Positions 4,601 to 33,651 of a DNA stretch of 64,000 bases are shown here, piece after piece. The stretch covers positions 2,390 to 66,389 of the forward strand of contig JAFDDG010000030.1 in assembly GCA_019310965.1 (NCBI GenBank), given 5' to 3'. Positions within the stretch are counted from its first letter, which is position 1. Each line of letters begins with the position of its first letter. Position numbers and translations under genes: made by a program. The notes beneath the pieces are model-generated. The model searched no databases. It saw only the letters and a program-made list of their open reading frames with translations, and was not told the origin of the DNA. The DNA is from Deltaproteobacteria bacterium. GTDB taxonomy: Bacteria; Myxococcota_A; UBA9160; SMWR01.

Positions 4601-4882
4601 ACCGGAAACGGCGTCGGCGACCAGCGCATCGTTTACGAAGGCGGCGTCGCCACGCGCCTGGATGTCGACACCAACGGCGACCGCAAGCCGGATGCCGCCA
4701 TCAGCTACGACGCTGGCGGCAACGCGACCCATCAGGACGAGGATGCCGACTTCGACGGCGTGATCGATCGGCGCTTCCAGGGCGATCAGCTCGTCGACAT
4801 CCCCGCCGGCACACGCCTCCCCGGAGCGGACTTCGGAGGCCTCGGCTGCGGCAGCTTCCACGGCTTCTGGTGGAAGCGCTAG
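1610..4882 (+). CDS. Secreted, highly acidic tandem-repeat protein with about 38 DxDxDG calcium-loop-like motifs
   Basis: In frame with ORF 1499..4882. TTG at 1610 gives a Sec-type signal, MRTEFLLTVALLVNISSGASA/EK; TTG 1628 is the alternative start. The body repeats E-x-D-x-[ND]-x-D-G-x-x-D followed by an aromatic-x-x-G hairpin about every 24-27 aa. Confidence 0.75.
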   Translation: MRTEFLLTVALLVNISSGASAEKCRTAIELRYDEFENLAEKHVDSNKDCQFDQVVYYSDGKATHAEIDSNFDGRIDTWTFFEADGKTVGRQEFDISGDGKKDRWIAHRAGKPASQLDDKDADGKADSTLYYKDGVPHHMEEDTDLDGQTDRWVDYRGGEVAVIEDDTNADGKADVRAEFDPSGAKILERQDTTHDGNFDIAIHYREGQKVRLEEDTKGKGRPDVVTHFDGEQIARKEADTTGDGHFDSIAYFEKGIERRQTRDEDGDGKLELVIYLDKSGAKEREEIDSKQDGQPDLVRFFSRGRRVREEEDQNGDRKADVITTYDDKLPLLREADTNLDGRKDTTIQYQDGKKLRQQEDRNGDSKPDAKYEFDAAEQLVFEELDENYDGYFEVINKYADGKLARRTLASRKTERAERNEFFENGKLARVEIDESGDGKPDLWNFHAPDGALIRQDQDSSGDGKVDTWLELDPETGKERTVRRDRNGDGKPDQWRTNSSTGTTLKLEEDRNGDEKPDRVVFFEAGLPKRFEEDSNGDGRPDVRGELDAAGETLREARDTTGDGQYDVRVAYTGGQRTREERDTRGDGQYDVITDYAGGAPSRQQQDTTGDGQLDSILQFEKGRQSVQTRDTNANGKPDVVLRFDAQERPAREEIDQNDDQKPDLVKLYVEGKLVREERDEDGDGRFERVTAYDGAEVSRSEADMNGDGTADVVAFYAEGRKQRQEEDRNFDGRPDVITLFDDQERAVQIDEDDDLDGRLETVTTFEGGVKVRTDKDRNGDGKSDLTAWYEGDRIVRQEEDTDFDGVVDRRSSGGAKGTTLQEADTDGNGRTDVWIVADAEGNVLERREDRSGNGEADFKAWFKDGKLERVELDATGDGCFETKEWYTKAETLRAKYEDTTGNCKTDLWSYVADGAVVRQGQDTSGNGRPDILIHYTKNGKATAQEVASGGKTPDKKFLLDASGAVKAQCTLDEAGKKLNTRANVDASGTVLEMLTDTTGNGVGDQRIVYEGGVATRLDVDTNGDRKPDAAISYDAGGNATHQDEDADFDGVIDRRFQGDQLVDIPAGTRLPGADFGGLGCGSFHGFWWKR
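1805..4775 (+). repeat. In-frame degenerate coding repeat array (period about 69-81 nt)
   Basis: Motifs such as EEDRNGDGKPD, EADTTGDGHFD and DKDRNGDGKSD recur. I counted about 38 units by eye. Strings like ggcgacggcaagcccgac recur at the nucleotide level. Confidence 0.8.
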
Positions 4883-4884
4883 CT

Positions 4885-5703
4885 CTGGAGGTTCGCGGCT
4901 TCTGTCTGGGCATCCTGCGCAACGGCGGCCTCGCCCACAAGCTGGCGCCGCCGCCGGGCGACCTGAGAGACGACGCCCGGGGCCCTGCCCTGCGCATCCG
5001 GCGCCCGAGGCGCGACGCCGAGCTCGCCTTTGCTCCGCACGCGCCGCGACTGCCGCGGCCCTCTCGACTCGACGATGCCGACGCCCGTGCCGCATGCCTC
5101 GCGCGCTTCGCGCACCACGAGCTGATGGCGGTGGAGCTCTTCGCCTGGGCGCTGCTGCGCTATCCGGCGTTGCCGGGCGCGCTGCGTCTCGGCCTGCTGG
5201 CGGCTCTCGCCGACGAGCAACGCCACTGCCACCTCTACCTCGAGCGACTCGCGGCCCATGGCTCGACGCTCGGCGAGCACCCGCTCTCGGACTATTTCTG
5301 GCGACACGAGCCGGCTCTGGCCGCATCTCACCAGGGCCCCCGCGCCTTTCTGTGCGCCATGGGGCTCACCCTCGAGCAGGCGAACCTCGACTTCTCGCTC
5401 GTCTACGCCGAGGGCTTTCGCGCGGCCGGCGACGAGGCCAGCGCGCAAGCCTGCGAGCTCGTGCAGCGGGACGAGATCCGCCACGTGCGCCTGGCCGCCG
5501 AGTGGCTGCCGCAGCTCGGCGGCCCCAAGGACCCGATCGCCGCCTACGAAGCTGCGGTGCCCTTCCCTCTGGAAGCCGCCCGGGCCAAGGGGCGCCGCTT
5601 CGACGCCGCCGCGCGGCGCGACGCCGGGCTCGCGCCGGAGTTCGTCGCCTACGTGCGCACGGCGCGCTCGAATGCGGAACGCAACCCGCGCTCCCGTGCC
5701 TGA
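4885..5703 (+). CDS. DUF455-like ferritin-fold (putative di-iron) protein
   Basis: This is the 3' part of ORF 4261..5703, after the upstream stop at 4882. Paired metal-ligand-like motifs are present: HHELMAVELFAW, DEQRHCHLYLERL, LEQANLDF and QRDEIRHVRL. The start is uncertain; CTG 4885 is the first in-frame codon after the stop. Confidence 0.5.
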   Translation: MEVRGFCLGILRNGGLAHKLAPPPGDLRDDARGPALRIRRPRRDAELAFAPHAPRLPRPSRLDDADARAACLARFAHHELMAVELFAWALLRYPALPGALRLGLLAALADEQRHCHLYLERLAAHGSTLGEHPLSDYFWRHEPALAASHQGPRAFLCAMGLTLEQANLDFSLVYAEGFRAAGDEASAQACELVQRDEIRHVRLAAEWLPQLGGPKDPIAAYEAAVPFPLEAARAKGRRFDAAARRDAGLAPEFVAYVRTARSNAERNPRSRA

Positions 5704-6796
5704 GCCGCTGCGCATCGCCAACATCGGCGCCGAGGAAGGCGTCGCGCCGGACGTTCCCGCGGTGCGTGCGGCGGCCGCACTCTGGCGCAGCCTGTTCGAC
5801 GCACCGCCCGCCTTCTCGTGGCTGCCCGAGGGCGAGGACGCTGCGGTCGCCTGGCTCAACACCCCGCAGGCCGCCGCAGAGGCCGCCGCCGCCGGGCGCC
5901 GACTCGCGGGAGCACGCCCCGAGGTGGTGGCGCGGGTGCACGACAAAGCGTTCGCCCACGACGTGGCGCGGCGCGAGGGACTCTTGCCCGCCTGCCTCGA
6001 AGGCGTCGTCACGGCGCTCTCGCCGGACGAGCTACTGGCGGCGGATGCCGTCCCGGCCCTGGCGCGACGCCTGGGCGCCTGGCCCGCGTGGGCTCGAGCG
6101 CACTTCACGCTGAAGCCGCGCTGGGGCTCGAGCGGACGCGGACGCGTCGCCGGCAGCGACGGCCGAGCCGACACGCCGGAGATCCGCGGCGCCCTCGAGC
6201 GGCTGGCCCGACGCGGCGGCGCCATGCTCGAGCCCTGGCTCGCGCGCGGCCGCGAGCTCTCGGTGACGTTCTGGATCGAGCCCGACGCCGCGCTGCGCCT
6301 GGTCGGCAGCGCCGACCAGCTGACGAATGCGTCGGGCCTGTATCGCGGCGCGCGCGGCAGCGTCGACGCGCGCGGCCGAGTTGCTGCGCACAGCGCATGG
6401 GACGAAGCCGCTCGCGAGCTGGCACTGCCCCTCGCCAACGCGGCTGCGGCGCAGGGCTACTCCGGCCCGCTCGGCGTCGACCTCTTCGCCTTCCGCACGC
6501 CGGAGGGCGACACGGCGCTGCGTCCGGTCGAGCTGAACGCGCGCTACACGCTGGGCTGCGTCGCGATGGGGCTGGTGCGCCGCCAGCTCCCGCGGCTGCG
6601 CGAAGAGCTCGGCCTCGCACCCGGCCGCCTGGTCCAGTTCGCCCTGCTCGTCTCCAGCCACGAGAGCGCCGACCCCGCGGTGTTGCAGCTGCCGCTCGCT
6701 CCGGAGCTGGGCCCTCGGGGCCCGGCGCTCTGCTTCGCCGACGCACCGGAGCCTCTCGACGCGCTGCTCGCGGAGCCCACGTCGCACAGAACCTGA
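5696..6796 (+). CDS. ATP-grasp-fold ligase-like protein
   Basis: In frame with ORF 5258..6796. GTG at 5696 overlaps the upstream stop by 8 nt. FTLKPRWGSSGRGRV resembles the ATP-grasp K-P-x-x-G-S-x-G-x-G loop. RPVELNARYTLG resembles the E-x-N-x-R Mg/ATP motif. Confidence 0.5.
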   Translation: MPEPLRIANIGAEEGVAPDVPAVRAAAALWRSLFDAPPAFSWLPEGEDAAVAWLNTPQAAAEAAAAGRRLAGARPEVVARVHDKAFAHDVARREGLLPACLEGVVTALSPDELLAADAVPALARRLGAWPAWARAHFTLKPRWGSSGRGRVAGSDGRADTPEIRGALERLARRGGAMLEPWLARGRELSVTFWIEPDAALRLVGSADQLTNASGLYRGARGSVDARGRVAAHSAWDEAARELALPLANAAAAQGYSGPLGVDLFAFRTPEGDTALRPVELNARYTLGCVAMGLVRRQLPRLREELGLAPGRLVQFALLVSSHESADPAVLQLPLAPELGPRGPALCFADAPEPLDALLAEPTSHRT

Positions 6797-6894
6797 GCAG
6801 ACCTGCCCAGAACCGAGGCAACCCGCCGCCTGTGACGCGTGAAACCGCACCCGGCGGCGCCAGAACGGAACGCCCCTTGCACAAGCGCCGCGGC

Positions 6895-7209
6895 GTGTCG
6901 GACAAAACCACCTTTGAAATCGAAGTCTCCATTGGTGAACTGTGCCTCAGCGAGCTCGAGGCGCGCGCTCGCGAAGCGAACGGGGGCCAGCCGCTCCCGC
7001 TGAAAGATTGGGTCGCCCTCGCCGAGGCGTGGCACATTGCCGCCGCGCTGCGCGCGAGCCGCGGCAACCGCTCGGCGACCGCCCGCGCACTCGGCATCGG
7101 CCGGCGCACGCTCTACGCAAAGATGGAGAAGCTCCGCCTGATTCCCGTCTGGGCCGTCCTCGCCCGCAACAACGGCCGCGCACACGACCCCGAGCAAGCG
7201 TCCGCCTGA
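6895..7209 (+). CDS. Small Fis-type helix-turn-helix DNA-binding protein
   Basis: This is the tail of ORF 5818..7209. GTG 6895 is the proposed start, with TTG 6877 as an alternative. The C-terminus [30 protein letters not shown] is a Fis/NtrC-type HTH. Confidence 0.6.
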   Translation: MSDKTTFEIEVSIGELCLSELEARAREANGGQPLPLKDWVALAEAWHIAAALRASRGNRSATARALGIGRRTLYAKMEKLRLIPVWAVLARNNGRAHDPEQASA

Positions 7210-7258
7210 AACGGCCCACCCGCGCACGCAGCCCCTTCGGCCGCTGCCTCGCGCTTGA

Positions 7259-9253
<1,995 letters not shown>

Positions 9254-9258
9254 TCGAT

Positions 9259-9292
9259 GGGGTGGGGGCGCCCTGCGGGGCGCCTCCACCCT
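9259..9292 (+). terminator. Strong GC hairpin after glnK (terminator or attenuator-like, no U tract)
   Basis: ggtgggggcgccc-tgcg-gggcgcctccacc forms a 13-bp stem with one G-U pair and a 4-nt loop. It is followed by cttcc rather than a T run. Confidence 0.45.
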
Positions 9293-9453
9293 TCCACGCT
9301 CCACTTCCCGGCCGGCCTCCCGCCGGCATCCGCTGGCCGTTCGCCACCACCCGCGGCCATGGGCGGCCCATTCGCCTCGCCTGGGCGCCCCGGGCAGCCG
9401 CACGCCGGCACATCCCTTGCTCTCCTGCAGCAGCTCACAGCAGGAGGCTCGGC

Positions 9454-10770
9454 ATGGCAGCCATTCGATCGGTTCTGTGGATCGGCAAGGCACGACACTT
9501 CGCGGCAGACATCGTCGCCGATGCGCCGAGTCTCGATGTCGTCTGGGAGCGCGATGCTGCCGAGGCAGCGCGCAGCAGCGGCGACGGCTTCCACGCCGTC
9601 GTCCTCGAAGCCGAGGACGCCGACCAGGCACTGGCAGCGTTGGCCAGCCTGGTCGCGAACCCGGGAGCACCGGTGCTGGTGCGCATTGCACCCCGTCAGG
9701 CCGAGCGCGCATCCGAGCTGTTGGAGGCCGGCGCGGCCGACGTGGCGTTGCGTGGGGGACCGAACGAGGAGAGCGACCTGCTCGCGCGCATCGAGCGCCT
9801 GGCGCGGCCCGGCCGGCGCAGCCCCGATCCTCGTATCATCGGAGGCGCGCCGGCCATGCGCCGGGTGCTCGGCCTGGTCGCCGTATCCGCGCGCTCGCGC
9901 ACCACGGTGCTGCTCTCCGGCGAAACGGGAACCGGCAAGGAGGTGGTGGCCCGCGCCATCCACGCCGCCAGCCCGCGGCGCGACGCGGCGTTCATCGCCG
10001 TCAACTGCGCCGCCTTTCCCGACACACTGCTCGAGAGCGAGCTCTTCGGCTACCAGCGCGGCGCGTTCACCGGGGCAGACCGCAACCAGCCGGGTCTCTT
10101 CGAAGCCGCCCACGGCGGCACGCTCTTTCTCGACGAGATCGGAGAGACCTCGGCTCCCTTCCAGGCCAAGCTGCTGCGCGTGCTCCAGGAGCGCGAGGTG
10201 CGTCGCATCGGCGCTGCGCGCAACCAACACGTGGATGTGCGGGTCGTGGCCGCCAGCAATCGGGAGCTGAGACGCGAGGCCAACGAGCAGCGCTTTCGCA
10301 TCGATCTCTACTATCGCCTGGCCGTCTTCCCGATCACGCTGCCTCCGCTGCGGGAACGCCCGGGAGACATCCTGGCCCTGGCGCACCACTTTCTCGCCCG
10401 GCACGGCCCCGACGAGGGACACCGCGAGGCGGCGCTCACGCCAGCAGCCGAACAGCTGCTGCAGGCCCACCGCTGGCCGGGCAATGTGCGCGAGCTCGAG
10501 AACGAAGTGCTGCGCGCGTTGGCCATGACCGAGCCGGGGGAGGCCCTCGCACCGGAGCATTTCTCCGAACGCCTCGGCGCGATTCTCGAGCCCATCGAGA
10601 GTCAAGTCGCGCCGGGCGACACGCTGCGCGAGACCCTCGGCCGCATCGAAGGCTTCCTGATCCGCAAGAACCTCGCGGCGCACGATGGCCAGCGCAGCGC
10701 CACCGCCCGCGCGCTCGGCATCACCCGCGAGGGCCTCTACAAGAAGATGAAGCGGTTCGGGATCGAGTGA
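9454..10770 (+). CDS. Sigma-54-dependent transcriptional activator (NtrC family) with a degenerate receiver-like N-terminus
   Basis: ATG 9454 with a caggagg RBS, in ORF 8851..10770. Walker A is GETGTGKE, and the GAFTGA motif (RGAFTGADR) and [11 protein letters not shown] are present. The C-terminal Fis HTH is [23 protein letters not shown]. Confidence 0.88.
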
Positions 10771-10820
10771 GGCCTGCGGCCGGGGTTGCAGGAAGTCCCG
10801 ACGTGGTACACGTTATACAC

Positions 10821-11039
10821 ATGAAACGCGCAAATCTTGTGCTTGATGAGGATACCCTCGAAGAGGCAACCCGCCTCTCCGGCGAGAAGACCTACTCGGC
10901 CGCCGTAATGCGCGCGCTCGAAGACTTCGTACGCCGGGCCAAGGCGCGGCAGATCCTCGAGCTTCGAGGCTCGGGCCTGTGGGAGGGAGATCTCCCTGAG
11001 ATGCGCGGAGACAAACGCCGCAAGAAGAAGACGTCGTGA
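10821..11039 (+). CDS. vapB: Type II antitoxin (VapB-like)
   Basis: ATG 10821 in the frame of ORF 9417..11039. The 72-aa product begins MKRANLVLDEDTLEEATRLSGEKTYSAAVMRALEDFVRR. Its stop overlaps the PIN gene start (GTGA). Confidence 0.7.
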   Translation: MKRANLVLDEDTLEEATRLSGEKTYSAAVMRALEDFVRRAKARQILELRGSGLWEGDLPEMRGDKRRKKKTS

Positions 11040-11425
11040 TCCTGGTCGACACCTCGGTCTGGATCGAGGTCTTCCGAGCTCGTCGCCCTCTCGATCTGGA
11101 GGCGAGCGTGGACCTCGACGAGGTCGTGACCTGCCTCCCGATCGTGCAGGAGATTCTCCAGGGATTCCGCGAGGAGAACGCCTACCGAAGAGCCCGCGAC
11201 TCCATGCTCTCGTTTCCGATCGTCGAGTCCCCCCTCGGGAGCGACGTCTTCCTGGACGCCGTCGGTCTCTACCGCGCCGTCCGCCGAAGCGGGAGAACGG
11301 TCCGATCTTCCGTGGACTGCCTCGTCGCGGCCTGCGCGATTCGGCACGACCTCGAAGTGCTGCACCGCGACCGGGATTATGCAGCGCTGGCACGGGTCTC
11401 TGCGCTGCGCCAGCGAACGCCATGA
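11036..11425 (+). CDS. vapC: PIN-domain toxin (VapC-like)
   Basis: ORF 11036..11425. MILVDTSVWIEVF is the PIN N-terminal acidic motif. The later D in DCLVAACAI and HRDRDY match PIN spacing. Confidence 0.8.
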   Translation: MILVDTSVWIEVFRARRPLDLEASVDLDEVVTCLPIVQEILQGFREENAYRRARDSMLSFPIVESPLGSDVFLDAVGLYRAVRRSGRTVRSSVDCLVAACAIRHDLEVLHRDRDYAALARVSALRQRTP

Positions 11426-11505
11426 TCACCGCCTCACCGGCTCGCCCCTAGAATGCCGAGCCGTCGCCCCGGACGGGCTGACCCCCCACACATCACCATA
11501 CTTGA

Positions 11506-11526
11506 TGCTGGTATCATTGCTGGTAT
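11506..11526 (+). promoter_or_regulatory. Direct repeat TGCTGGTAT x2 (candidate promoter/operator of the second TA pair)
   Basis: cttgaTGCTGGTATcatTGCTGGTATtcaac lies 18-38 nt upstream of ATG 11544. It is locally AT-richer than the flanks. Confidence 0.35.
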
Positions 11527-11543
11527 TCAACTAGGCTGTCGGC

Positions 11544-11747
11544 ATGGCGGAGAAGCGCAAGATCACCCTGGAGGTGCCGGCAGACCTGCTGGAACGCGCT
11601 CTCGCCTCGTCGGGCGAAGGCATCACGCAGACGGTGCGGCAGGGGTTGAAGCTGGTCGCCGCCGGACGCGCCTACGAGGAGCTGCGGCGGCTGCGCGGCA
11701 AAGTGAAGCTCGGCATCGACCTGGAAGCCCTGCGCGAGGACCGGTGA
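11544..11747 (+). CDS. Type II antitoxin (second pair)
   Basis: ORF 11544..11747, 67 aa, beginning MAEKRKITLEVPADLLERAL. Its stop overlaps the downstream PIN gene start. Confidence 0.6.
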   Translation: MAEKRKITLEVPADLLERALASSGEGITQTVRQGLKLVAAGRAYEELRRLRGKVKLGIDLEALREDR

Positions 11748-12127
11748 TCGCGGTCGACACCAGCTCCTGGATCGCCTTCTTCTCCGATCGCGACTCGCCG
11801 GGCGACGACACGGCACTCGTGGAGAGCGCGCTCGCAGACCACCAGGCTTGCTTGCCTCCGGTCGTCCTGACCGAGTTGCTGAGTGATCCGAAGCTCCCGC
11901 GCGCACTCGCCTCGCTCTTCCTGCAGCTCCCGCTCCTCGAAAGCGAGCCGGGCTTCTGGGAACGCGCCGGACGCTTGCGAGCCAAGCTGATCACGCGACG
12001 CCGCCGGGCCCGTCTGGCGGACACCCTCATCGCGCAGAGCTGCCTGGATCACGGCGTCCGTCTCGTGACCCGAGACGACGACTTCCGTCATTACGCTCGC
12101 CTCGGGGGCCTGCGACTCGCCCTTTGA
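11744..12127 (+). CDS. vapC: PIN-domain toxin (VapC-like, second pair)
   Basis: GTG 11744 in the frame of ORF 11453..12127. Recognisable strings are VIAVDTSSWIAFF, LPPVVLTELLS, ADTLIAQSCL and VTRDDDF. Confidence 0.78.
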   Translation: MIAVDTSSWIAFFSDRDSPGDDTALVESALADHQACLPPVVLTELLSDPKLPRALASLFLQLPLLESEPGFWERAGRLRAKLITRRRRARLADTLIAQSCLDHGVRLVTRDDDFRHYARLGGLRLAL

Positions 12128-12223
12128 AGAGGGCGAACGAGGGTTGCGCTCTCATCGCAAGGGGAAGGATCCAGCACGCACTGCCCGGGGCTGCTCGGCC
12201 TCGAACGCGATTTCGAATCAGGG

Positions 12224-13117
12224 TCAGCCGAGCGCCTTCAGTGCGATCTCTCCGAGTAGCTCGACCCGCTCGGGGTTGTGACCGTTCACGGGGAGATCCA
12301 CGGTGATTCCGTCCAGTCCCAGGCTAACGGCCTCGGCGATGCGCTCTCCGACCGTGTCCACATCGCCGAAGATCAGCACATTGCGAGCCATCTCCCGGGT
12401 CGCCCCATCCCAGCCCTTGACCTGCGCAATGGCCTCGAGGTCGGCCTCGAGCTCCTCCAGCGTCGGGGCCACGGCGACCATCAGGAGCTTCGTCACCGCG
12501 ATCTCCGAGCGGTCGCGTCCGAGTCGGTCGCAGTGCTCTGCAAGAACCTCCAGCTTGCGCGGAATGTCCTTCACCTCGCCCAGCAGGTTCGATTCGTCCG
12601 CATACTGCGCGACCATGCGCAGCGTCTTCTTCTCGCCCTGGCCGCCGATCATGATCGGAATCTTCGAGAGCGGCGCGGGGGAGTTCACTGCGTCGACGGC
12701 GGTGTAGTGCTTCCCGTGGAGAGTGGGCTGCTCTCCGCACAGCATCGGCACGATGATATGGAGCGCCTCCTCGAGCTTCTCGAAGCGTTCCGTGAAGGTC
12801 CCGAACTCGAAGCCCAGGGCGAGGTGCTCCGCTTCGAACCAGCCGGCACCGATGCCGAGCGTCGCGCGGCCGTGCGAGACGTGATCGAGGGTCGTGAGGG
12901 TCTTCGCGAGCAGGCCGGGGTTCCGGTAGGTATTGCCCGTGACCAGGGCCGAGAGCCGGACCTTCTCGGTGTGTTGCGCGATCGCCGAGAGCATCGAATA
13001 GCACTCGAACATCGGCTCCTCGGGCGCGCCGATGATGGGCAGCTGATAGAAGTGGTCCATCAGCATCACCCGGTCGTAGCCCGCGGCCTCTCGGTCCTCG
13101 GACGCAGTCGGTCCCAC
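12224..13117 (-). CDS. Luciferase-like monooxygenase (LLM) family oxidoreductase, probably F420- or flavin-dependent; N-terminus looks short
   Basis: ORF 12224..13117. Strings MDHFYQLP, RLSALVTGNTYRNPGLLAK, GRATLGIGAGWFEAEH and IPIMIGGQGEKKTLR are typical of LLM class oxidoreductases. Confidence 0.7.
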   Translation of the reverse strand: MGPTASEDREAAGYDRVMLMDHFYQLPIIGAPEEPMFECYSMLSAIAQHTEKVRLSALVTGNTYRNPGLLAKTLTTLDHVSHGRATLGIGAGWFEAEHLALGFEFGTFTERFEKLEEALHIIVPMLCGEQPTLHGKHYTAVDAVNSPAPLSKIPIMIGGQGEKKTLRMVAQYADESNLLGEVKDIPRKLEVLAEHCDRLGRDRSEIAVTKLLMVAVAPTLEELEADLEAIAQVKGWDGATREMARNVLIFGDVDTVGERIAEAVSLGLDGITVDLPVNGHNPERVELLGEIALKALG

Positions 13118-13154
13118 CGAAGGCAGACGAAAGCGGGGGGCCGTCGAGGTCGTT

Positions 13155-13979
13155 CTAGCTGGCAGCGGCGGGTGCCGCCTGTCTCGCGTTGCGGCATTCC
13201 GTGCAGTGGTAGTCCGGCCGCTCCGCCTCCTTCTCGCTCGGGGTGAGCCGCGTCGCGAACAGGATGTCCATGAAGGCCGTGAAGAAGCCGAAGTTGTGCT
13301 CCGGGCTGCTCGAGTGGTGCTCGTTGTGGTGCCAGGCGGAGACCAGGAAGCGGCTGTGCGGCGAAGGCATCCAGGGCGGATCGAAGCCGGCGTGGAGATA
13401 GATTCCGTAGATGAAGTTCAGCGACGCGAAGGTCCCGATCAGAGCCACGTCCCATATCGGGAAGAGAAAGGGAATCCAGAGGATCGGAGATGCCTTGATG
13501 AACATATCAACCGGGTGATCGGCCATCACGCCGAAGGGCGTCGGGTTCCCGTAGCGATGGTGCTGGCCGTGAACCTTCCGGAGCAGAGCGTTGCGGTGGC
13601 AGACCCAGTGGAAGGCCCACTCGAAGACCTCCATCACGAGGAACACGCCGAAGATGCTCAGCGGGATGTACCAGAGCGGGTGATCGGTGGGCGAAGCATA
13701 GAGGCGGTTGTAGCCGTGGTAGTAGCACCAGAAGGCGATCGCGACGGACCCCATCACCATGGACATCGCGAGCACGCCATCGAAAACTTCGCCCCTCACC
13801 TGCGCCGCGGGCGTGGGCTTGAGCTGGGTCTTGAAGCGCAGCGCAGTCTCGGCGTAGGCGGACCGATGCAGCAGAAAGTAGAGGCCGCCGCAAACCAGCA
13901 GGAACCAGGCTACACCGATCGCAGCCAGGGCGGGCCAGAGGAGATAGAAGGGGAGTCCGTCGAAGAGGTCGAGAAGCAT
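13155..13979 (-). CDS. Fatty acid hydroxylase / sterol desaturase superfamily membrane di-iron enzyme
   Basis: ORF 13155..13979. Three histidine boxes are present: HWVCH, HGQHHRYGNP and WHHNEHH. There are several TM helices. Confidence 0.75.
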   Translation of the reverse strand: MLLDLFDGLPFYLLWPALAAIGVAWFLLVCGGLYFLLHRSAYAETALRFKTQLKPTPAAQVRGEVFDGVLAMSMVMGSVAIAFWCYYHGYNRLYASPTDHPLWYIPLSIFGVFLVMEVFEWAFHWVCHRNALLRKVHGQHHRYGNPTPFGVMADHPVDMFIKASPILWIPFLFPIWDVALIGTFASLNFIYGIYLHAGFDPPWMPSPHSRFLVSAWHHNEHHSSSPEHNFGFFTAFMDILFATRLTPSEKEAERPDYHCTECRNARQAAPAAAS

Positions 13980-14051
13980 GTCGGGAGGATAACTGCCCGA
14001 ATGCGGCGAGCAATTCCGTGCGCCGGATGTCGAGCCGTCCCTTCGACTCGC

Positions 14052-14516
14052 TCAGGCGTTCGCATTCCAGTCGGCGATCAGCGTCTCTATCGTGACGTCC
14101 ATCACGGGCTTCATGTCCTCGTCGTACAACTCGTAGAGGATCCCGTCGCTGGCGTGACAGCCAAAGAAGGCGATCCCGCCCTCGTCTCCCCCTCGCTCGA
14201 GGTGCGGCAGTGGCGCATCCACCGTCAGCGCGTAGTCGCCGGCGCATCGCACCTTGGGCTCGGCGCGAGTTCCGTCCGGATGGATGTCCCACAGATGCTG
14301 TTCGCCCTCGAACACGAGGACGGTCGTGGTCGCGATGTGTCGATGGACCGGGCAATGACCGCCGTCGCCCTCCCACCGCACCACCATGTCGAGGGTGCCG
14401 GCGGCCAGGTCGTGACCGAGGATCGTGTATTCGTGGCTCACCTTGTAGGAAAGCCCGGGGTCGCCCGTCACCTTCCGCCACTTGTGACGCGCGGGATCGA
14501 AGAAGCTCTGGGCCAT
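14052..14516 (-). CDS. Cupin-domain protein
   Basis: ATG 14516 with an aaggaggg RBS, inside ORF 14052..14561. HCPVHRHIATTTVLVFEGEQ resembles a cupin metal motif. Confidence 0.5.
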   Translation of the reverse strand: MAQSFFDPARHKWRKVTGDPGLSYKVSHEYTILGHDLAAGTLDMVVRWEGDGGHCPVHRHIATTTVLVFEGEQHLWDIHPDGTRAEPKVRCAGDYALTVDAPLPHLERGGDEGGIAFFGCHASDGILYELYDEDMKPVMDVTIETLIADWNANA

Positions 14517-14618
14517 TGCAGGACCCTCCTTGGTTGAATCGTCCGTTTCAGTCACGAGCACCGAGCGCCTTCGCTCCGTTGTCGACCGGGGGCGGCGAAG
14601 CGCTGCGGCGAACGGGCT

Positions 14619-16451
14619 CTAGCGCAGCTCCAGCCCCTTCATCCCGCCGCCGGCGCGAACCTCCTCGAGAATCTCCGCGAACTCCCCTGGCCCGCCGAAG
14701 AAGAAGCCGTTCTGGCTGCTCTCCGGCCCAGGCTGGCCTTCGTTGTTGTAGTAGCTGGGTGTGCAGGTCGTCTGGAAATCGCCCGTGGTGTTGGAAAGAC
14801 GGATCACCGCGTCGACCCACTCGGCCTCGGCTTCGGCCGTGACCTCGAGCGACTGGATGCCCTGCTCGATGGCACGCTTGATGATGAAGCCGATGTGCGT
14901 GCCCGACTCACCGAGCCCGTGCGTAAAGTTCACGGTGAAGCCAGACTGCACGATGCTCACGATGAAGAAGCAGTTGGGAAAGCCGTGCGCCTGCATGCCG
15001 TGCAGCGTGCGCACGCCGTCGGCCCACTTGTCCGTCAATTTCTGACCGCCCCGCCCGACGGTCTCGTAGCCGGCCCGCCGCGGGTAGCTGGTCCCGACCT
15101 CGAAGCCGCTGGCGTAGATCAGGCAGTCGAGCTCGTACTCCCGTCCGTCGACGACCACGCCCTTCTCCGTCACCCGCTCCACGCCCTTGCCCTGGGTTTC
15201 CACGAGCGTGACGTTGTCGCGGTTGAAGGTCGGGAGGTACTCGTTGTGGAAGCACGGGCGCTTGCAGAACTGACGGTAGTAGGGCTTGAGGGCTTCCGCC
15301 GTCTCCGGGTCGTCCACCAGGGAGTCCACGCGGGCGCGGATCTGCTCCATCTTCTCGAAGTCAGCCAGCTCCATGATCTTCGCCAGGGCTTCCGGCGACG
15401 TGTCGGAGTCGCCCCCCTGCTGAAACTCGGCGAGGAGCTTGCGAATGACGTCGGTCCAGCCGTCGTTCACCAGATCCTCTGCCTGGAAGCCGCCGGCGGT
15501 GAGGAGCTTGAAGTTCTCCATTCGTTCCCGGTGCCAACCGGGCTGCAGGCTCTTCGCCCACTCCGGGTCGGTGAGATCGTTTTTCTTCACGTCGATCGAC
15601 GACGGCGTGCGCTGGAACACGTAGAGGTGTTCTGCCGCCTCGCCCACGTGCGGCACGCATTGCACCGCCGTTGCGCCGGTGCCGATGATGCCGACGCGCT
15701 TGCCCTTCAGCCCCGTCAGGTTCCCATCGGAATCACCGCCTGTGTAGTCGTAGTCCCAGCGGCTGGCGTGGAAGGCGTGGCCCTTGAAATCCTCGATGCC
15801 GGGGATGCCGGGCAGCTTCGGTTGGTTGAGGACGCCAATCGCCATGCACACGAAGTGGGCCTTCATTCGATCACCACGATCCGTCGTGATGATCCAGCGG
15901 GAGGCATCCTCGTCCCAGCGCACCTCCGTCACCTTGGTCTGGAAGCACGTATTCCGGTAGAGATCGTACTTCTTCGCGATCCTCTGACAGTGCTCGAGGA
16001 TCTCGGCCCCGGTGACGTACTTCTGCTTTGGCATGTAGTCGGTTTCTTCGAGCAGTGGCAAATAGATGTAGGACTCGATGTCGCAGGCCACGCCGGGGTA
16101 GCGGTTCCAGTACCAGGTGCCGCCGAAATCGCCGGCACTGTCGATGAAGCGGATGTCCTCGACGCCTTGATCGCGCAGCTCCGCGCCGACCAGCAGTCCG
16201 CCGAATCCGCCCCCGATCACCGCCACCTCGACCTCGTCCGTCAGCGGCTCGCGGCTGATGCTGGACTCGGCGTGGGGATCTTCCACGAAGTGCGCGTAGG
16301 CACCCTTGACCTCGATATACTGCTCGTTGGCATCATTGCGCAGGCGCTTTTCCCGCTCCTCGCGGTACTTCTCGCGCAGCGCGTCCGCGTCGTATCCGGG
16401 CCCGCCCGCCTCGGAAGCGGTCTGCGTAGAATCGTCGTTCTCGGTTGCCAT
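14619..16451 (-). CDS. Type I Baeyer-Villiger monooxygenase (FAD/NADPH)
   Basis: ORF 14619..16451. GGGFGG is the FAD-binding motif. The BVMO fingerprint FxGxxxHxxxWD is present as FKGHAFHASRWD. The second Rossmann motif is IGTGATAVQ. Confidence 0.85.
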   Translation of the reverse strand: MATENDDSTQTASEAGGPGYDADALREKYREEREKRLRNDANEQYIEVKGAYAHFVEDPHAESSISREPLTDEVEVAVIGGGFGGLLVGAELRDQGVEDIRFIDSAGDFGGTWYWNRYPGVACDIESYIYLPLLEETDYMPKQKYVTGAEILEHCQRIAKKYDLYRNTCFQTKVTEVRWDEDASRWIITTDRGDRMKAHFVCMAIGVLNQPKLPGIPGIEDFKGHAFHASRWDYDYTGGDSDGNLTGLKGKRVGIIGTGATAVQCVPHVGEAAEHLYVFQRTPSSIDVKKNDLTDPEWAKSLQPGWHRERMENFKLLTAGGFQAEDLVNDGWTDVIRKLLAEFQQGGDSDTSPEALAKIMELADFEKMEQIRARVDSLVDDPETAEALKPYYRQFCKRPCFHNEYLPTFNRDNVTLVETQGKGVERVTEKGVVVDGREYELDCLIYASGFEVGTSYPRRAGYETVGRGGQKLTDKWADGVRTLHGMQAHGFPNCFFIVSIVQSGFTVNFTHGLGESGTHIGFIIKRAIEQGIQSLEVTAEAEAEWVDAVIRLSNTTGDFQTTCTPSYYNNEGQPGPESSQNGFFFGGPGEFAEILEEVRAGGGMKGLELR

Positions 16452-16502
16452 GCCCTCGCCTTCTTAGTTTGTCGCCGGTCGGGCGACAATACCACGAACG
16501 GC

Positions 16503-18158
16503 TCAGAGATCTTCGATGCGGATGACGTGGTTCGGGCAGTAGCGGGCCGCCAGCTCGGCCTTCTTGCGCAGCTGCTTGCGCGGTGTCTCGTCCTTCACGT
16601 GCACCCGCTCGTCGGGACCCAGCTCGAAGATCTCGGGCGCCTCGCCGGTGCAGACCGCGTGCCCCTGACACAGGTCGGCATCCACGCAGACCCGGAACGG
16701 CAGCGCCGCCTCCTCTGCCTGCTCGCGCTGCTGAACTCGCTCCGCACTCGCAGCGCTGACCGCGCCGGCCTTGCGCGGACGGTGACGCACACGACACGGC
16801 TGCTTCAGGTGCACGACCATCTTCGAATGGTCGTCGACGTAGCTCTCGGAGGGCTGGGCGAACTCGAACTCGAAACGTCGCAGCATCAGGCTGAAGATGC
16901 CCTTCATCTGCATCAGCGCAAAAGCCGAGCCGATGCACTTGTGCCGGCCGCCTCCGAATGAAATCCAGGACCACGGGTTGCGCGCATCCTCGCGGCGATC
17001 GTCGCTGTAGCGCTCTGGATCGAATCGATCCGGCTCGGGAAAGATGTTGGGATCCCGATTGGAGACGGCCGGCGAGACGGCCACCAGGTCGCCGGCCTTG
17101 ACCGTGAAGTTCTTGAAGTGGAAGTCGTGCATCACCTTTCGCATCAGGATGATGAGCGGTGGGTGCATGCGCAGCGTCTCCTTGAGCACTCCCTCCAGCA
17201 GCGGGATCTCGCGCAGCGACTGGAAGCTCACCTGACGCCCATCGGCGTAGATGGCGTCGAGCTCTTCGACGACGCGCGCCATGACCTCCGGGTTTCGCAG
17301 CAGCTCGATGAGGGCCCAAGAGGCGGCGCCCTGGCTGGTGTGGTGGCCGGCCAACATCATCCCGATGATCATGCCGGTGATCTCGGAGCGGCTGTACCGC
17401 TTGTCGCCATTCTCGTTGATGAGTGAGTCCATGGCCTGCAGGAGATCCCGGCAGCGCCTGCCCTCCTCCTCGCGCGTGTCGAGGATCTCGGTGATCAGCT
17501 CGACGAGCTTGATGCGTGCCGCGTCGCGGGCGTGGAAGGAGGGGATGTCCATGTAGGGGTCGACGTAGGCGTAGGCGTCCGTGCCGCGCTCGAGATCTTG
17601 AAAGGCCGTCGCGAACTCGCTGCCCTTCTGGGCCAGGTCGTCGCGGAATTCCTGTCCGATCAGGGTGGCGGTCGAGGTGTAGGTGGTGAGCTCCCCGAAG
17701 AACTCGAGCAGGTCGAAATCATCCGAGCCCTGCAGGCGTTCGCACATCGCTTCGGTTTCGGCATTGATCACATCGGCGTGACGCCGCATGTATTCGTCGC
17801 GCAGGGCACGCGTGCGGATCGCATTCTTGCGCTGCTCTACCGGGAGGTCGAAGATGACGCCCGGGCCGAAGATCGGCTTCATGAAGGGATAGGCCGCCCC
17901 CTGGTCGAGCTGCTCGTCCGGCGCACGGAAGAACAGCTCCTGCGCCTCGGGCCCGTAGAGCAGGGTGATGTGGGTGCCCGCCAGGTTGATCTCGCCGACC
18001 TCGCCGCACTCGTTGCGCACCCGCCAGAAGAGCTCGACCGGCGCGGTGCGGAATTCTTCCAGGTGACCCACGTCGGGCTGCTCGTTCGAGAGACGCGGCG
18101 GAGCCTGTCCCCCGGGATGGCTGGCATGGGCGGCGCTGGCGACTGTCTTCTCGGGCAT
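16503..18158 (-). CDS. cyp51: CYP51-like cytochrome P450 fused to a C-terminal 3Fe-4S-type ferredoxin
   Basis: ATG 18158 with a GGAGGAG RBS, inside ORF 16503..18188. The product is collinear with M. tuberculosis CYP51 as I recall it: AGHHTSQGAASWALIEL, LKETLRMHPPLIILMR, FGGGRHKCIGSAF, DHSKMVVHLKQP. The tail carries CQGHAVC...YCP. Confidence 0.8.
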   Translation of the reverse strand: MPEKTVASAAHASHPGGQAPPRLSNEQPDVGHLEEFRTAPVELFWRVRNECGEVGEINLAGTHITLLYGPEAQELFFRAPDEQLDQGAAYPFMKPIFGPGVIFDLPVEQRKNAIRTRALRDEYMRRHADVINAETEAMCERLQGSDDFDLLEFFGELTTYTSTATLIGQEFRDDLAQKGSEFATAFQDLERGTDAYAYVDPYMDIPSFHARDAARIKLVELITEILDTREEEGRRCRDLLQAMDSLINENGDKRYSRSEITGMIIGMMLAGHHTSQGAASWALIELLRNPEVMARVVEELDAIYADGRQVSFQSLREIPLLEGVLKETLRMHPPLIILMRKVMHDFHFKNFTVKAGDLVAVSPAVSNRDPNIFPEPDRFDPERYSDDRREDARNPWSWISFGGGRHKCIGSAFALMQMKGIFSLMLRRFEFEFAQPSESYVDDHSKMVVHLKQPCRVRHRPRKAGAVSAASAERVQQREQAEEAALPFRVCVDADLCQGHAVCTGEAPEIFELGPDERVHVKDETPRKQLRKKAELAARYCPNHVIRIEDL

Positions 18159-18207
18159 CGGCTCTCCTCCTCTGGGATGGGAATCCATGCTATACCATTT
18201 ATCTGCG

Positions 18208-18220
18208 TTGTAAATTGTAA
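18208..18220. promoter_or_regulatory. AT-rich TTGTAA direct repeat in the cyp51/tetR divergent intergenic region (candidate operator/promoter)
   Basis: ttgtaaattgtaa sits in a 139-nt intergenic region. It is flanked at a distance by GGGATGGG (18174..18181) and its complement CCCATCCC (18246..18253). Confidence 0.3.
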
Positions 18221-18297
18221 TTTTGCCCCGTGGACCTGGAGAAGCCCCATCCCCTCTGAGATGGCCCCCGGGACTCGGAGCAGAGCGCGAGGCAGGA

Positions 18298-18936
18298 ATG
18301 AGCGAGCGGCTGGAGATTCCCCGGACTCAGCGGAAGCGGCGCAGCCACGCCGAGCGGAGCGCCGAGACCCAGAGCCGGATCAAGCGCGCCGTGGTCGAGG
18401 CCATTGCCGACCTCGGCTTCCACCGGACCACGGCGGCAGAGATCAGCCGCCGTGCGGGCGTGAGCTGGGGAGCGGCGCAGCATCATTTCGGCGACAAGGA
18501 CGGCATCCTGATCGCGGTGCTCGTCGACTCGTTCAACCGCTTCGCCGAGCGGCTCGCGAGCATCGCCGTCGAGGGCGCCCCGCTCGAAGAACGCGTGGCA
18601 ACCTTCGTCGACGCCGCGTGGGAGCACTTCGCAAGTCCCCACTACCGCTGCACGTTCGAGATCCTGCTCAACATGCCGTCTCCCGATTGGGCTTCGCGAG
18701 AGCTTCCGCTGCGGGATGCGACCCTCGACGCCTGGCGCAGCATCTGGCATCGCTTCTTCGGCGATGCGGGCCTGACGCCGCGCAAGACCGTCGCCGTGCA
18801 GTACTACACGATCTCGGTCCTGTCCGGCCTCGCGGCCATGAAGCGGTTCGAGGGCCCCACGGCGGAACGCCATCGCATCGAGCTCGGCCTCCTCGAGGAC
18901 ACTCTCGTTCGCGAGCTCGGTCGCGGGAGCGATTGA
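18298..18936 (+). CDS. TetR-family transcriptional regulator
   Basis: ATG 18298 in ORF 18223..18936. The N-terminal HTH is TQSRIKRAVVEAIADLGFHRTTAAEISRRAGVSWGAAQHHFGDKDGIL. Confidence 0.85.
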   Translation: MSERLEIPRTQRKRRSHAERSAETQSRIKRAVVEAIADLGFHRTTAAEISRRAGVSWGAAQHHFGDKDGILIAVLVDSFNRFAERLASIAVEGAPLEERVATFVDAAWEHFASPHYRCTFEILLNMPSPDWASRELPLRDATLDAWRSIWHRFFGDAGLTPRKTVAVQYYTISVLSGLAAMKRFEGPTAERHRIELGLLEDTLVRELGRGSD

Positions 18937-19035
18937 GCGTCAGCGACGAGCCGCCGAGTAGCCCCGCACGGCCTTCGCAGGCGCCACCGGCTTGCCCGCA
19001 GCACGCAGCGGTGCGCGCCACCGACCGCCGTGCCC

Positions 19036-19848
19036 TCAGGCGAGGCCCGAGAAGTCGATCTGGCCCGTGGTCATGAAGGCGCTGAAGCCCATGTCCACGT
19101 TCAGGTTCACACCGTTGACGTAACGCGCCGCATCCGCGCCGAGGAAGACCAGCGTGGTGGCGATGTCGGTGGGCGTGGCGATCGTCCCTCCGCACTGCTC
19201 GATGGTCCAGCTCATCGTCTTCTCGGTCATGGTCTCGTTGAACTCCGGGAGCAACGGCGTATCGATCGGCGCCGGGCACACGCTATTCGTGCGCACGCCG
19301 CGGGCAAGCGTCTGCTTGGCGCTCTTCAACGTGTAGACCTGCACGCACTCCTTCGAGAACCCATAGCCGTCGCCGACGAGATCCTTGTGCGAATCGCACC
19401 AGGCGAGCAGCTCCGCGCGATCTTCGATGGCAATCGCCTCCATCACCTCCGCCAGGTGGCCGGGCCACTGGCCGCCGGCGATCGACGCCGTGTTCACGAT
19501 GGCGCCTCCCTGCGGAATCTGCGGCAACAAGGCCTCGGACAGCTGACGCAGACCCAGCCAGTTCACGCTCATCACATCGGCGACCGGACGCGTCGCAGAG
19601 ATGCCGGCGTTGTTGAACAGCACGTCCACCCGGCCGTCGATCTGCTCGGCTGCAGCCGCCACGGCCGCCGCATCGCCCATATTGGTCTCGATGAACGAGC
19701 TGATGGGCCCGTCGGGGCGCTTGATGTCGAGGGCGATGACTTCCGCCGCACCGAGCTGCTGCAATACCTCGAGGCACGCCGCGCCCACGCCCGAGAAGGC
19801 TCCGGTGATGACGACGCGCTTGCCCGAATAGTCGAAGGGGTGGCTCAT
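19036..19848 (-). CDS. Short-chain dehydrogenase/reductase, 3-alpha-hydroxysteroid dehydrogenase / coniferyl-alcohol dehydrogenase-like subgroup
   Basis: ATG 19848 (alternative 19860) in ORF 19036..20139. Strings are KRVVITGAFSGVGAA and NNAG. There is a long insertion between ASIAG and the catalytic YGFSK, as I recall for the HsdA/CalA type. Confidence 0.7.
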   Translation of the reverse strand: MSHPFDYSGKRVVITGAFSGVGAACLEVLQQLGAAEVIALDIKRPDGPISSFIETNMGDAAAVAAAAEQIDGRVDVLFNNAGISATRPVADVMSVNWLGLRQLSEALLPQIPQGGAIVNTASIAGGQWPGHLAEVMEAIAIEDRAELLAWCDSHKDLVGDGYGFSKECVQVYTLKSAKQTLARGVRTNSVCPAPIDTPLLPEFNETMTEKTMSWTIEQCGGTIATPTDIATTLVFLGADAARYVNGVNLNVDMGFSAFMTTGQIDFSGLA

Positions 19849-30546: not shown

Positions 30547-30569
30547 TGCGCGCGAGGATACCGCGCGCC

Positions 30570-33373: not shown

Positions 33374-33435
33374 GGTAGCCGGCCCGCCGCGGCACAAGGG
33401 CTCTGGTATGATCGCCGACTCGACCGCACGAGGAG

Positions 33436-33651
33436 ATGAGGGCGTTGCCCGGCCTGCACGATTTCACGGCTCAGCGAAACGACGGCGATCTGCAGTCGCT
33501 CGGCGGCTGTGCCGGCAAGGTCTGCCCGATGGGGAAGGTCGCCTCGACGTTCCCGCTCGATGGACCGGCAGCCGCCGTGACGCGCTTCGAACCACCGGCG
33601 GAGCCCGGGGCGTCGGAGTTGCTGGCTGCCATCGAGTCCGCGCTCGGGTGA
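33436..33651 (+). CDS. Small ORF (71 aa) with faint SelD/PurM-N-terminal-like GCAGK motif; may be a gene remnant or non-coding
   Basis: ORF 33436..33651. Third-codon positions are G/C-rich like real genes. LQSLGGCAGKVCPMGKV weakly recalls the SelD motif GxGCxxKxxPxxL. Confidence 0.25.
   Translation: MRALPGLHDFTAQRNDGDLQSLGGCAGKVCPMGKVASTFPLDGPAAAVTRFEPPAEPGASELLAAIESALG

Follow-up and report, generated by a model that had tools for sequence, protein, structure and literature searches.

In a 64-kb stretch of contig JAFDDG010000030.1 (the window, meaning the whole stretch that was analysed) we examined a compact array of five co-directional genes encoding a cytochrome P450 of the CYP51 family fused to a ferredoxin (CYP51-Fdx), a Baeyer-Villiger monooxygenase (BVMO), a cupin-like protein, a membrane enzyme of the FA_hydroxylase superfamily and a luciferase-like monooxygenase (LLM), with a divergent TetR-family repressor and a short-chain dehydrogenase/reductase (SDR) on the CYP51 side. 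Comparative analysis showed that this array is a lineage-specific patchwork and not a conserved operon. It is probably co-transcribed and stitched together, in an uncultured marine member of the Myxococcota, from modules that are conserved independently of each other: a CYP51 paralogue with its divergent TetR and a candidate operator, and a BVMO-cupin pair whose usual home is a different gene cluster. As a tentative explanation, and the one we favour, the array would serve the inducible oxidation of a sterol-like or other polycyclic lipid.

The CYP51-ferredoxin fusion belongs to a distinct sub-clade

A preliminary description of this DNA, made from the letters alone, had called the P450 a CYP51-ferredoxin fusion, and structures, signatures and domain composition bear this out. 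Its 561-aa open reading frame (ORF) matches Pfam p450 with E = 1e-70 and carries Fer4_15/Fer4_13 at residues 500-558, corresponding to a ferredoxin domain (3Fe/4Fe) at about 16515-16691. Among the solved relatives of the P450, mycobacterial CYP51B1 matches over residues 29-474 (7tef, E = 1.5e-156; 1e9x, E = 7.8e-152), and the alignment with the Methylococcus CYP51-ferredoxin fusion 6mcw spans residues 23-558, i.e., both domains. Identity to Nocardia CYP51 amounts to 54-57% (tblastn), which lies above the more than 40% over the whole P450 domain that delimits the CYP51 family. All CYP51 signatures are present (AYPFMKPIFGPGVIFD, AGHHTSQG and FGGGRHKCIG), and Y76, H258/H259 and C394 align (M. tuberculosis numbering); the B'-helix/B'C-loop signature and the His-Thr-Ser triad of the I-helix were taken as defined in PMC7947880. 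The architecture of a P450 with a C-terminal ferredoxin is the same as in Methylococcus capsulatus CYP51fx and the M. tuberculosis CYP51B1 locus (PMC13277303, PMC7947880), whereas the genes downstream of it in the window (BVMO, cupin, FA_hydroxylase and LLM) differ from those of published CYP51-Bsr systems.

According to Lee, Giner & Welander (2026, PMC13277303), the CYP51s of Methylococcaceae, Mycobacteriales and uncultured Myxococcota that are fused or linked to a ferredoxin make up a single clade, which co-evolves and co-localises with the NTF2-fold 8,14-sterol reductase 8,14-Bsr. This clade demethylates lanosterol at C-14 in Methylococcus, and a functional CYP51 together with active 8,14-Bsr homologues is also found in Mycobacterium, a sterol degrader (PMC13277303). 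The window CYP51 falls into a sub-clade, here termed 'a', to whose listed full-length members it is at least 65% identical, with the remaining hits at 59% or below; one partial match of 96% identity, which covers half of the query, is the exception. Seventeen positions consistently separate sub-clade 'a' from the canonical group, several of them in the I-helix (250, 252, 261 and 262, M. tuberculosis numbering). Since the catalytic signatures are intact in the sub-clade, a sterol-type substrate is to be expected, possibly with altered specificity. The closest relatives come from marine or hydrothermal metagenome-assembled genomes (MAGs) of Myxococcota, and a relative with 91% identity is indexed in 132 blocks of the searched collection.

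Sub-clade 'a' is largely uncoupled from 8,14-Bsr

Among the CYP51 relatives, a SnoaL-fold gene (about 187 aa) is located directly 3' of CYP51-Fdx in locus L006, in all of the loci L010-L033 except L028 (23 of 24) and in 16 loci among L034-L080. Its Tyr and Asp residues match, with a one-residue offset, Y37/Y43/Y78/Y80/D133/D136, the residues mutated in PMC13277303, and from motif, fold family and position we infer that it encodes 8,14-Bsr. TetR-CYP51-Bsr arrangements exist in this wider clade as well, e.g., in L006 and L016. The window gene shares the ferredoxin linkage with the CYP51/8,14-Bsr pair, but not the co-localised reductase: neither tblastn nor profile hidden Markov model searches found an 8,14-Bsr in the 64-kb window, and it is likewise absent from the 10 kb on either side of most sub-clade 'a' genes.

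Both kinds of CYP51 stand side by side in L183 (8001-13278; the same in L184), where 2 kb separate two CYP51-ferredoxin fusions with a mutual identity of 52%. The first copy is of the 'a' type (79% identity to the window), with TetR in divergent orientation and an FA_hydroxylase gene downstream. The second, with 53% identity to the window and 63-67% to the canonical clade, has a TetR of its own, is preceded by an SDR and another P450, and is followed by a Bsr-like SnoaL gene (78% identical to the copy in L030). Given this placement of an 'a' CYP51 beside a canonical CYP51-Bsr pair, the window gene behaves, as far as sequence relationships indicate, as a paralogue that is accessory to the canonical demethylase.

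The Bsr-like SnoaL gene follows CYP51-Fdx in Myxococcota, Actinomycetota, Binatia and in MAGs labelled Spirochaetales or Gammaproteobacteria, apparently a broader range of taxa than PMC13277303 lists.

The gene neighbourhood of the CYP51 is variable

The analysis of gene neighbourhoods started from 160 fetched loci, 80 from genomes with CYP51 relatives and 80 from metagenomes with BVMO relatives; further contexts of the FA_hydroxylase, of the cupin and of more CYP51 relatives were added, and all were searched with the seven window proteins. Conservation counts refer to the 14 contexts of CYP51 sub-clade 'a', the window included. Conservation of the neighbourhood with the CYP51 orthologue, a check that the preliminary description had proposed, gave a negative outcome: the five-gene set occurs in 0 of the 13 contexts besides the window. 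An orthologous TetR (65-84% identity) divergently adjoins the CYP51-Fdx orthologue in nine of the 14 contexts, a member of the FA_hydroxylase superfamily of any type is present in five, and a window-type BVMO in three (the window, L005 and L091), within 5 kb of the CYP51 and in three arrangements. Of these 14 contexts, the window is the only one with the window's cupin, FA_hydroxylase and LLM. Even at 91% CYP51 identity (L001/L177) TetR is the only gene in common with the window, and nothing else within ±10 kb matches the 64 kb.

A second FA_hydroxylase type of 224-235 aa lies beside TetR-CYP51 in L002, L004, L181/182 and L183/184, with 66% identity between the copies of L181 and L183. A ferritin-like di-iron protein is encoded beside the 'a' CYP51 in L005 and L185, and other P450s, LLMs and acyl-CoA dehydrogenase (ACAD)/thiolase/DUF35 genes recur in the vicinity of 'a' CYP51s. 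The neighbours are consistently oxidative and lipid-related, and the exact partners vary; their recurrence at the family level suggests a real oxidative theme. Because the array as such is not conserved and its modules are conserved separately, we regard it as a lineage-specific juxtaposition.

Coq4-family genes also recur beside BVMO orthologues and 'a'-type CYP51-Fdx genes (L091, 1812-2582; L174, 10559-11230; L116, about 2248; L177, 3959-4588 and 10357-11079; L004). Together with the ferritin-like protein of L005 and L185, which is Coq7/PaaA-like, and an FAD oxidoreductase that is also present in L005, this set is reminiscent of quinone-ring hydroxylation enzymes.

A candidate TetR-repressed promoter in front of CYP51-Fdx

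The regulator matches Pfam TetR_N with E = 2.4e-9. Its divergent orientation and the 139-nt spacer to CYP51-Fdx are as first described; the spacer had also been called AT-rich, which holds for a core of ~45 nt only, the overall GC content being 58%. The TetR/CYP51 spacers of eight loci are unalignable outside one block of about 40 nt. This block consists of a −35 box TTTACA, a 16-nt spacer, a −10 box TAnnnT and an inverted repeat ATTTAC-N7-GTAAAT over the −35 box and spacer. In the window, the −35 box TTTACA (18209-18214) and the −10 box TAGCAT (18187-18192) are likewise separated by 16 nt, and the copy of the repeat at 18197-18215 has one mismatch. The operator-like site occurs a single time in 64 kb, compared to 0.01 occurrences expected by chance, and the CYP51 promoter is the only sigma-70-like match in 11.9-20.2 kb. 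An inverted-repeat search of the TetR/CYP51 spacer alone returned nothing, and the operator became visible only after alignment of the eight loci. As judged from this alignment, the block has the anatomy of a TetR-repressed promoter, at which TetR would bind and from which a ligand would release it.

The best solved relatives of the repressor are FadR-type TetRs, which match mainly over the DNA-binding domain. A KstR-like sterol sensor was considered and found no support, all matches being of the generic TetR/FadR type.

BVMO and cupin form a separately conserved pair

The BVMO had been described as a type I enzyme of the subgroup acting on large-ring or polycyclic ketones, and its closest solved relative is in agreement with this. 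The translation holds FKGHAFHASRWD, ALREKYREEREKRLR, GGTWYWNRYPGVACD, GGGFGG and GTGATA, and with these all type I motifs (FxGxxxHxxxW[P/D], [A/G]GxWxxxx[F/Y]P[G/M]xxxD and two Rossmann GxGxxG motifs). At least 30 solved BVMOs match with E < 1e-50, the closest being PockeMO (5mq6, E = 8e-134, from residue 23; PAMO, 1e-84), and the N-terminal extension aligns with PockeMO 5mq6 alone; the enzyme belongs to the PockeMO-like subgroup. Type I fingerprints and N-terminal extension are shared with PtlE/PenE/PntE of pentalenolactone biosynthesis as well as with PockeMO. The window BVMO falls below the equivalog cut-off of the PtlE NCBIfam model (856 bits versus 1100) and differs from these enzymes in being paired with the 154-aa cupin.

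This small protein has no Pfam or NCBIfam match, and its earlier designation as a cupin stands by predicted fold and not by sequence profile. Its AlphaFold2 (AF2) model has a predicted local distance difference test score (pLDDT) of 88.8 and a predicted TM-score (pTM) of 0.82. Foldseek returned 609 PDB matches at E < 1e-3, with probability 1.0 to many cupins, which are also the top-ranked ones among the matches listed; the highest TM-scores, 0.71/0.73, were obtained with acetylacetone dioxygenase Dke1 (3bal), to which the fold is alike at a sequence identity of only about 10%. Of the 831 homologues that make up the family, the 120 listed have a length of 154 aa in almost every case (149-161) and, apart from the exact match, are 71-81% identical. 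Residues H54, C55, H58, H60, E72, H74, H105 and E107 are invariant, and H58/H60/H105 among them make up a probable 3-His metal site, at positions analogous to those of the metal ligands H62/H64/H104 of Dke1. Compared to Dke1, the family conserves additional His, Cys and Glu residues without exception (H54, C55, H74, E72 and E107). We also considered the protein as a hidden analogue of 8,14-Bsr, which is ruled out by its cupin (not NTF2) fold; no Bsr profile matches in the window.

BVMO orthologues with 60-82% identity are present in at least 80 metagenome loci. In eight of the 19 informative loci (BVMO at least 68% identical, window counted) the cupin gene directly follows the BVMO gene, and it precedes it in L174-176. 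BVMO and cupin are thus a separately conserved orthologous pair, of which no description was found in the searched literature. Its usual home (L170-L173, about 1860-15000; also L101, L103, L104, L092, L099 and L100) is a CoA-dependent cluster in the order MaoC (twice), CoA-transferase (on the opposite strand), TetR, BVMO, cupin, P450 (416 aa), Thiolase_C_1, DUF35 (ChsH2-type), Amidohydro_2, LLM (297 aa) and PhyH. The P450, TetR and LLM of this cluster are not orthologues of the window genes, and the P450 is not a CYP51. The cluster, well conserved and apparently uncharacterised, resembles steroid or isoprenoid side-chain catabolism. We presume igr-type steroid side-chain operons to be its analogue: L170-173, L101 and L103/104 likewise combine a P450, two MaoC-type hydratases, Thiolase_C_1, a ChsH2-type OB/zinc-ribbon domain and a CoA-transferase, here together with the BVMO and the cupin, whereas the window is devoid of all of these CoA-dependent genes.

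FA_hydroxylase, LLM and SDR

The fourth gene encodes, as proposed from its sequence, a member of the sterol-desaturase/FA_hydroxylase superfamily (Pfam FA_hydroxylase, E = 9.7e-23) with N-terminal membrane segments and the three His boxes HWVCH, HGQHH and HHNEHH (HX3H, HX2HH and HX2HH). In these features it is like ERG3/SC5D and ERG25/SMO; in contrast to them, its orthologues are unlinked to sterol genes in the three contexts examined, where orthologues of 71-79% identity reside in three unrelated neighbourhoods. Besides the exact match there are 74 close homologues with 58-82% identity, many of them named 'lathosterol oxidase' by the automatic annotation of the Joint Genome Institute (JGI), with 'sterol desaturase' as another name in the source annotations; no curated NCBIfam model and no solved relative matches. 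The motif ...HGQHHRYGNPTPF...HPVD... is presumably similar to SC5D/ERG3.

The LLM belongs to the family to which it had been assigned (Pfam Bac_luciferase; TIGR03560 F420-LLM, 266 bits versus a cut-off of 231), but it does not look like a complete gene, as the match begins at position 21 of the TIGR03560 model and at position 33 of 314 of the Pfam model. An N-terminus was found neither in other frames nor by upstream ORF extension, there is no ribosome-binding site (RBS) before either candidate start, and no upstream in-frame start codon exists; the gene may be 5'-truncated. In-frame upstream of the LLM, which is without about the first 20-32 profile positions, lies a peptide ...PRFRLPS... that could be a decayed MRFGL-type N-terminus, and the LLM may represent a pseudogene or a rearrangement scar.

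The SDR scores 257 bits with NF009092 (cut-off 242), and its best solved relatives, the 3α-hydroxysteroid dehydrogenase (3α-HSD)/carbonyl reductases 1fjh and 2dkn, align end-to-end. Its earlier assignment to the 3α-HSD/CalA type, with an insertion before the catalytic Tyr, is confirmed by the alignment with 1fjh, which covers residues 12-261 including the inserted segment and YGFSK. With the Comamonas testosteroni enzyme 1fjh and CalA it shares the full-length alignment including the extra segment before YxxxK, but the relationship to 1fjh is distant (E = 1e-18), and the gene is located on the other side of TetR, convergent with it across 99 nt and outside the putative five-gene transcription unit. 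SDR homologues with 42-43% identity are found just after CYP51-Fdx/Bsr in four loci of more distant CYP51s (L023, L024, L029 and L030), and the SDR is absent from the closest CYP51 contexts.

Proposed inducible lipid oxidation and its alternatives

The locus had been proposed to be a cluster for sterol, steroid or terpenoid oxidation. The gene families are as proposed, and with oxygenases recurring beside this CYP51 type a role in sterol or polycyclic-lipid oxidation is the most plausible theme; the conserved five-gene operon that a dedicated cluster might be expected to form was not observed, and a 'pathway' goes beyond the gene content itself. We infer co-transcription, a ligand, the substrate of every enzyme and one compound shared by the modules, and on this basis a tentative scheme can be drawn. 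TetR would bind ATTTAC-N7-GTAAAT overlapping the −35 box and spacer of the CYP51 promoter, and a lipid ligand would release it. Transcription would then pass through four short terminator-free gaps from CYP51-Fdx to the LLM gene. CYP51-Fdx, self-sufficient for the last electron-transfer step, would oxidise a sterol-like polycyclic lipid, most likely by 14α-demethylation, and the di-iron FA_hydroxylase could add a desaturation or a methyl/C-H oxidation. A dehydrogenase (the SDR, possibly the LLM) might yield a ketone, which the BVMO would turn into a lactone or ester, and an oxygenolytic or isomerising step by the cupin might come last. Rather than taking part in core sterol synthesis, the array would serve to remodel or break down a 14-methyl sterol or triterpenoid upon induction.

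Several observations weigh against this scheme. The five-gene array was found in none of about 190 fetched loci besides the source contig. The FA_hydroxylases that adjoin CYP51 elsewhere belong to a different subfamily, with 25-31% identity to that of the window, and the orthologues of the window enzyme never adjoin CYP51, BVMO or LLM elsewhere in the contexts examined. The closest BVMO orthologue (82%, L090) has neither the cupin nor a CYP51 nearby, and the LLM appears to lack both N-terminus and RBS. By NCBIfam and solved-structure comparison, TetR has no special similarity to the sterol-sensing KstR. Neither a lactone or ester hydrolase nor any classical steroid-core gene is part of the array; KshA, KstD and Hsa meta-cleavage genes were found neither among the Pfam-scanned window genes nor among the JGI gene calls within ±10 kb.

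A somewhat unlikely but serious alternative is a mosaic without a common pathway, in which rearranged neighbours in a flexible region serve different processes and co-transcription is incidental. TetR-CYP51-Fdx would then be a self-contained unit of two genes, BVMO-cupin a pair displaced from its catabolic cluster, the FA_hydroxylase a stand-alone membrane-lipid enzyme and the LLM a truncated remnant. Conservation of each module alone in other contexts, synteny of nothing but TetR at 91% CYP51 identity and the high variability of the 'a' CYP51 neighbourhoods all fit this picture; so do the missing LLM N-terminus and the FA_hydroxylase-LLM junction without RBS, which are consistent with a rearrangement scar, and the two VapBC modules directly flanking the LLM end. 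However, the BVMO in three arrangements and FA_hydroxylase-family genes in five of the 14 contexts exceed the expectation for unrelated genes, little space is left between the five genes and it holds neither terminator- nor promoter-like sites, and codon-position GC is uniform with no sign of recent foreign insertion.

Inducible oxidation also has to be weighed against dispersed de novo sterol biosynthesis of the kind found in other Myxococcota, in which CYP51-Fdx would act as the C-14 demethylase, the FA_hydroxylase as an ERG3/SC5D-like C-5 desaturase or C-4 methyl oxidase, and the other genes would be unrelated or involved in late tailoring. Myxococcota are the main bacterial sterol producers, with MAGs that carry many CYP51 and oxidosqualene cyclase (Osc) genes (PMC12004948), the ferredoxin-fused clade is biosynthetic in Methylococcus (PMC13277303), and the FA_hydroxylase orthologues that go by the name of lathosterol oxidase are widespread. 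We nevertheless consider this reading unlikely. In accordance with the preliminary description, which had noted no cyclase or squalene epoxidase in the window, none of Osc, squalene epoxidase (squalene monooxygenase), SdmAB and C-14 reductase was found among the window genes scanned, and 8,14-Bsr is missing as well. Genes for inducible catabolism or detoxification typically have such a divergent TetR whose operator overlaps the promoter, and the sub-clade, mostly devoid of 8,14-Bsr, coexists with a canonical CYP51-Bsr pair in L183/184.

Pentalenolactone-like sesquiterpenoid tailoring by the P450 and a PtlE-like BVMO is very improbable and was rejected: although PtlE (neopentalenolactone/pentalenolactone D synthase) is the top NCBIfam model for the BVMO and the P450 has NCBIfam matches to CYP170A1 and pentalenene oxygenase, PtlE stays below its cut-off, the P450 scores only 122-139 bits with these models (cut-offs 700-800) but at least 500 bits with CYP51 structures, no terpene cyclase, prenyl-diphosphate synthase or Fe/2-oxoglutarate dioxygenase was found among the scanned window genes, and the usual context of BVMO orthologues is catabolic and CoA-dependent, not biosynthetic.

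A bolder form of the inducible-oxidation reading, which we offer as a long shot, is that in abundant uncultured marine Myxococcota a TetR-gated CYP51 paralogue uncoupled from 8,14-Bsr repeatedly recruits oxygenases (the PockeMO-type BVMO with the 3-His cupin, FA_hydroxylases and ferritin-like di-iron enzymes). These would jointly mount a previously undescribed inducible attack on sterols or triterpenoids with a 14-methyl (and 4-methyl) group, compounds to which the classical 9,10-seco pathway has no ready access. A conceivable route would be C-14 demethylation, leading to a hindered 3-ketone and then to Baeyer-Villiger opening of ring A. If so, this would be a new bacterial entry point into ocean sterol turnover.

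All parts of the array belong to known families, and ferredoxin-fused bacterial CYP51s have already been published. As the preliminary description had supposed, no pathway with this gene set was found in the searched literature, nor was a TetR-gated CYP51 sub-clade without Bsr or its recurrent association with BVMO and FA_hydroxylase genes. Bacterial CYP51s outside sterol producers, and with them the physiological role of the mycobacterial enzyme, which is active in vitro, have long been puzzling, and 8,14-Bsr was identified as the co-evolving CYP51 partner only in 2026. The window locus represents a third situation, in which repressor and operator are kept, the Bsr neighbour is mostly lost and the oxygenase sets change; sub-clade 'a' is seen in many ocean metagenomes. 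If the enzymes act on one substrate, they would constitute a new marine bacterial way to modify or degrade methylated sterols, would matter for the interpretation of sterol biomarkers and would provide new biocatalysts. If the array is not one pathway, it calls for caution, as an 'operon' in a MAG may look neat and co-directional and yet be a mosaic of recent origin. By-products of the analysis are a large 154-aa cupin family without Pfam annotation that is tied to BVMO, and an uncharacterised CoA-dependent catabolic cluster around the pair.

Layout of the array and its genomic setting

Gene starts were set from RBS positions and from the JGI gene calls on the source contig. A strong RBS, GAGGAGGAG, precedes the ATG of CYP51-Fdx at 18158, and another strong one, AAGGAGG, that of the cupin gene at 14516. 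The CYP51-Fdx ORF is open to 18188, with the true start 10 codons downstream, and the cupin ORF is open to 14561. Counted from these starts, the distances between the five genes are 51, 102, 72 and 37 nt, and TetR and CYP51-Fdx lie 139 nt apart, as first described. Thus, the layout of five co-directional minus-strand genes with short gaps and all seven ORFs given in the preliminary description are confirmed, and the families claimed for the seven genes stand by Pfam, NCBIfam and solved relatives, in the case of the cupin by fold only (Table 1).

Table 1. Genes and sequence elements of the array and its CYP51-side flank, numbered from the first position of the window.
Feature	Position	Strand	Basis or description
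LLM	12224-13117	minus	Bac_luciferase/TIGR03560, F420-type
FA_hydroxylase	13155-13979	minus	Pfam and three His boxes
Cupin-like protein, 154 aa	14052-14516	minus	predicted fold
BVMO, type I, with N-terminal extension	14619-16451	minus	motifs, PockeMO 5mq6
GC-rich hairpin without T-run	16465-16494	minus	CYP51-BVMO gap, ViennaRNA
CYP51-Fdx fusion	16503-18158	minus	Pfam p450 and Fer4_15/Fer4_13
CYP51 promoter and putative TetR operator	18187..18215	minus	eight-locus alignment
TetR-family repressor	18298-18936	plus	Pfam TetR_N; divergent from CYP51-Fdx
SDR, 3α-HSD/CalA family	19036-19848	minus	NF009092, 1fjh/2dkn

A terminator scan detected no intrinsic terminator-like site in any internal gap. The 51-nt CYP51-BVMO gap folds with a minimum free energy of −23.3 kcal/mol (ViennaRNA), and the scan does not call the hairpin within it as a terminator. 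This strong hairpin, 3' of the CYP51-Fdx stop codon, has an 8-bp core stem TTGTCGCC/GGCGACAA and might function in processing, in stability or as a partial attenuator.

The GC content of the window is about 69%, with a dip at 12-18 kb (0.645 compared to about 0.69) that stems from the first and second codon positions; GC3 in this region is 0.82-0.88, as in the remaining window. With codon-position GC alike in these genes and throughout the window, nothing hints at a recent foreign insertion, and a recent horizontal acquisition of the block as a unit is unsupported.

The seven-gene block is flanked by unrelated housekeeping and accessory genes. Next to the SDR are genes for a GDSL-lipase/TPR protein, an enoyl-CoA hydratase, a dienelactone-hydrolase-like protein and the CCA-adding enzyme. 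On the LLM side lie two VapBC toxin-antitoxin pairs, a sigma-54 activator, PII and an ammonium transporter; the two VapBC modules (PIN toxin and antitoxin) are in tandem at about 10700-12130, between the LLM end and the sigma-54 activator/PII/ammonium transporter group.

Other features of the window

Rfam and tRNA scans of the window gave no matches. Six window ORFs have no Pfam match, and one of them (9046-10683) is probably a mis-called frame. The ORFs at 1499-4882, 51461-53584 and 47815-48972 (1127, 707 and 385 aa) show good codon-position GC bias and no Pfam match. AT skew is unusually high, 0.36, in the 2-4 kb region of the window. At 28252-41389, genes for two large membrane proteins with sulfatase domains (764 and 852 aa) are interspersed with an SDR gene and two glycosyltransferase-like genes (PMT_2), and this region may be a cell-envelope modification locus.

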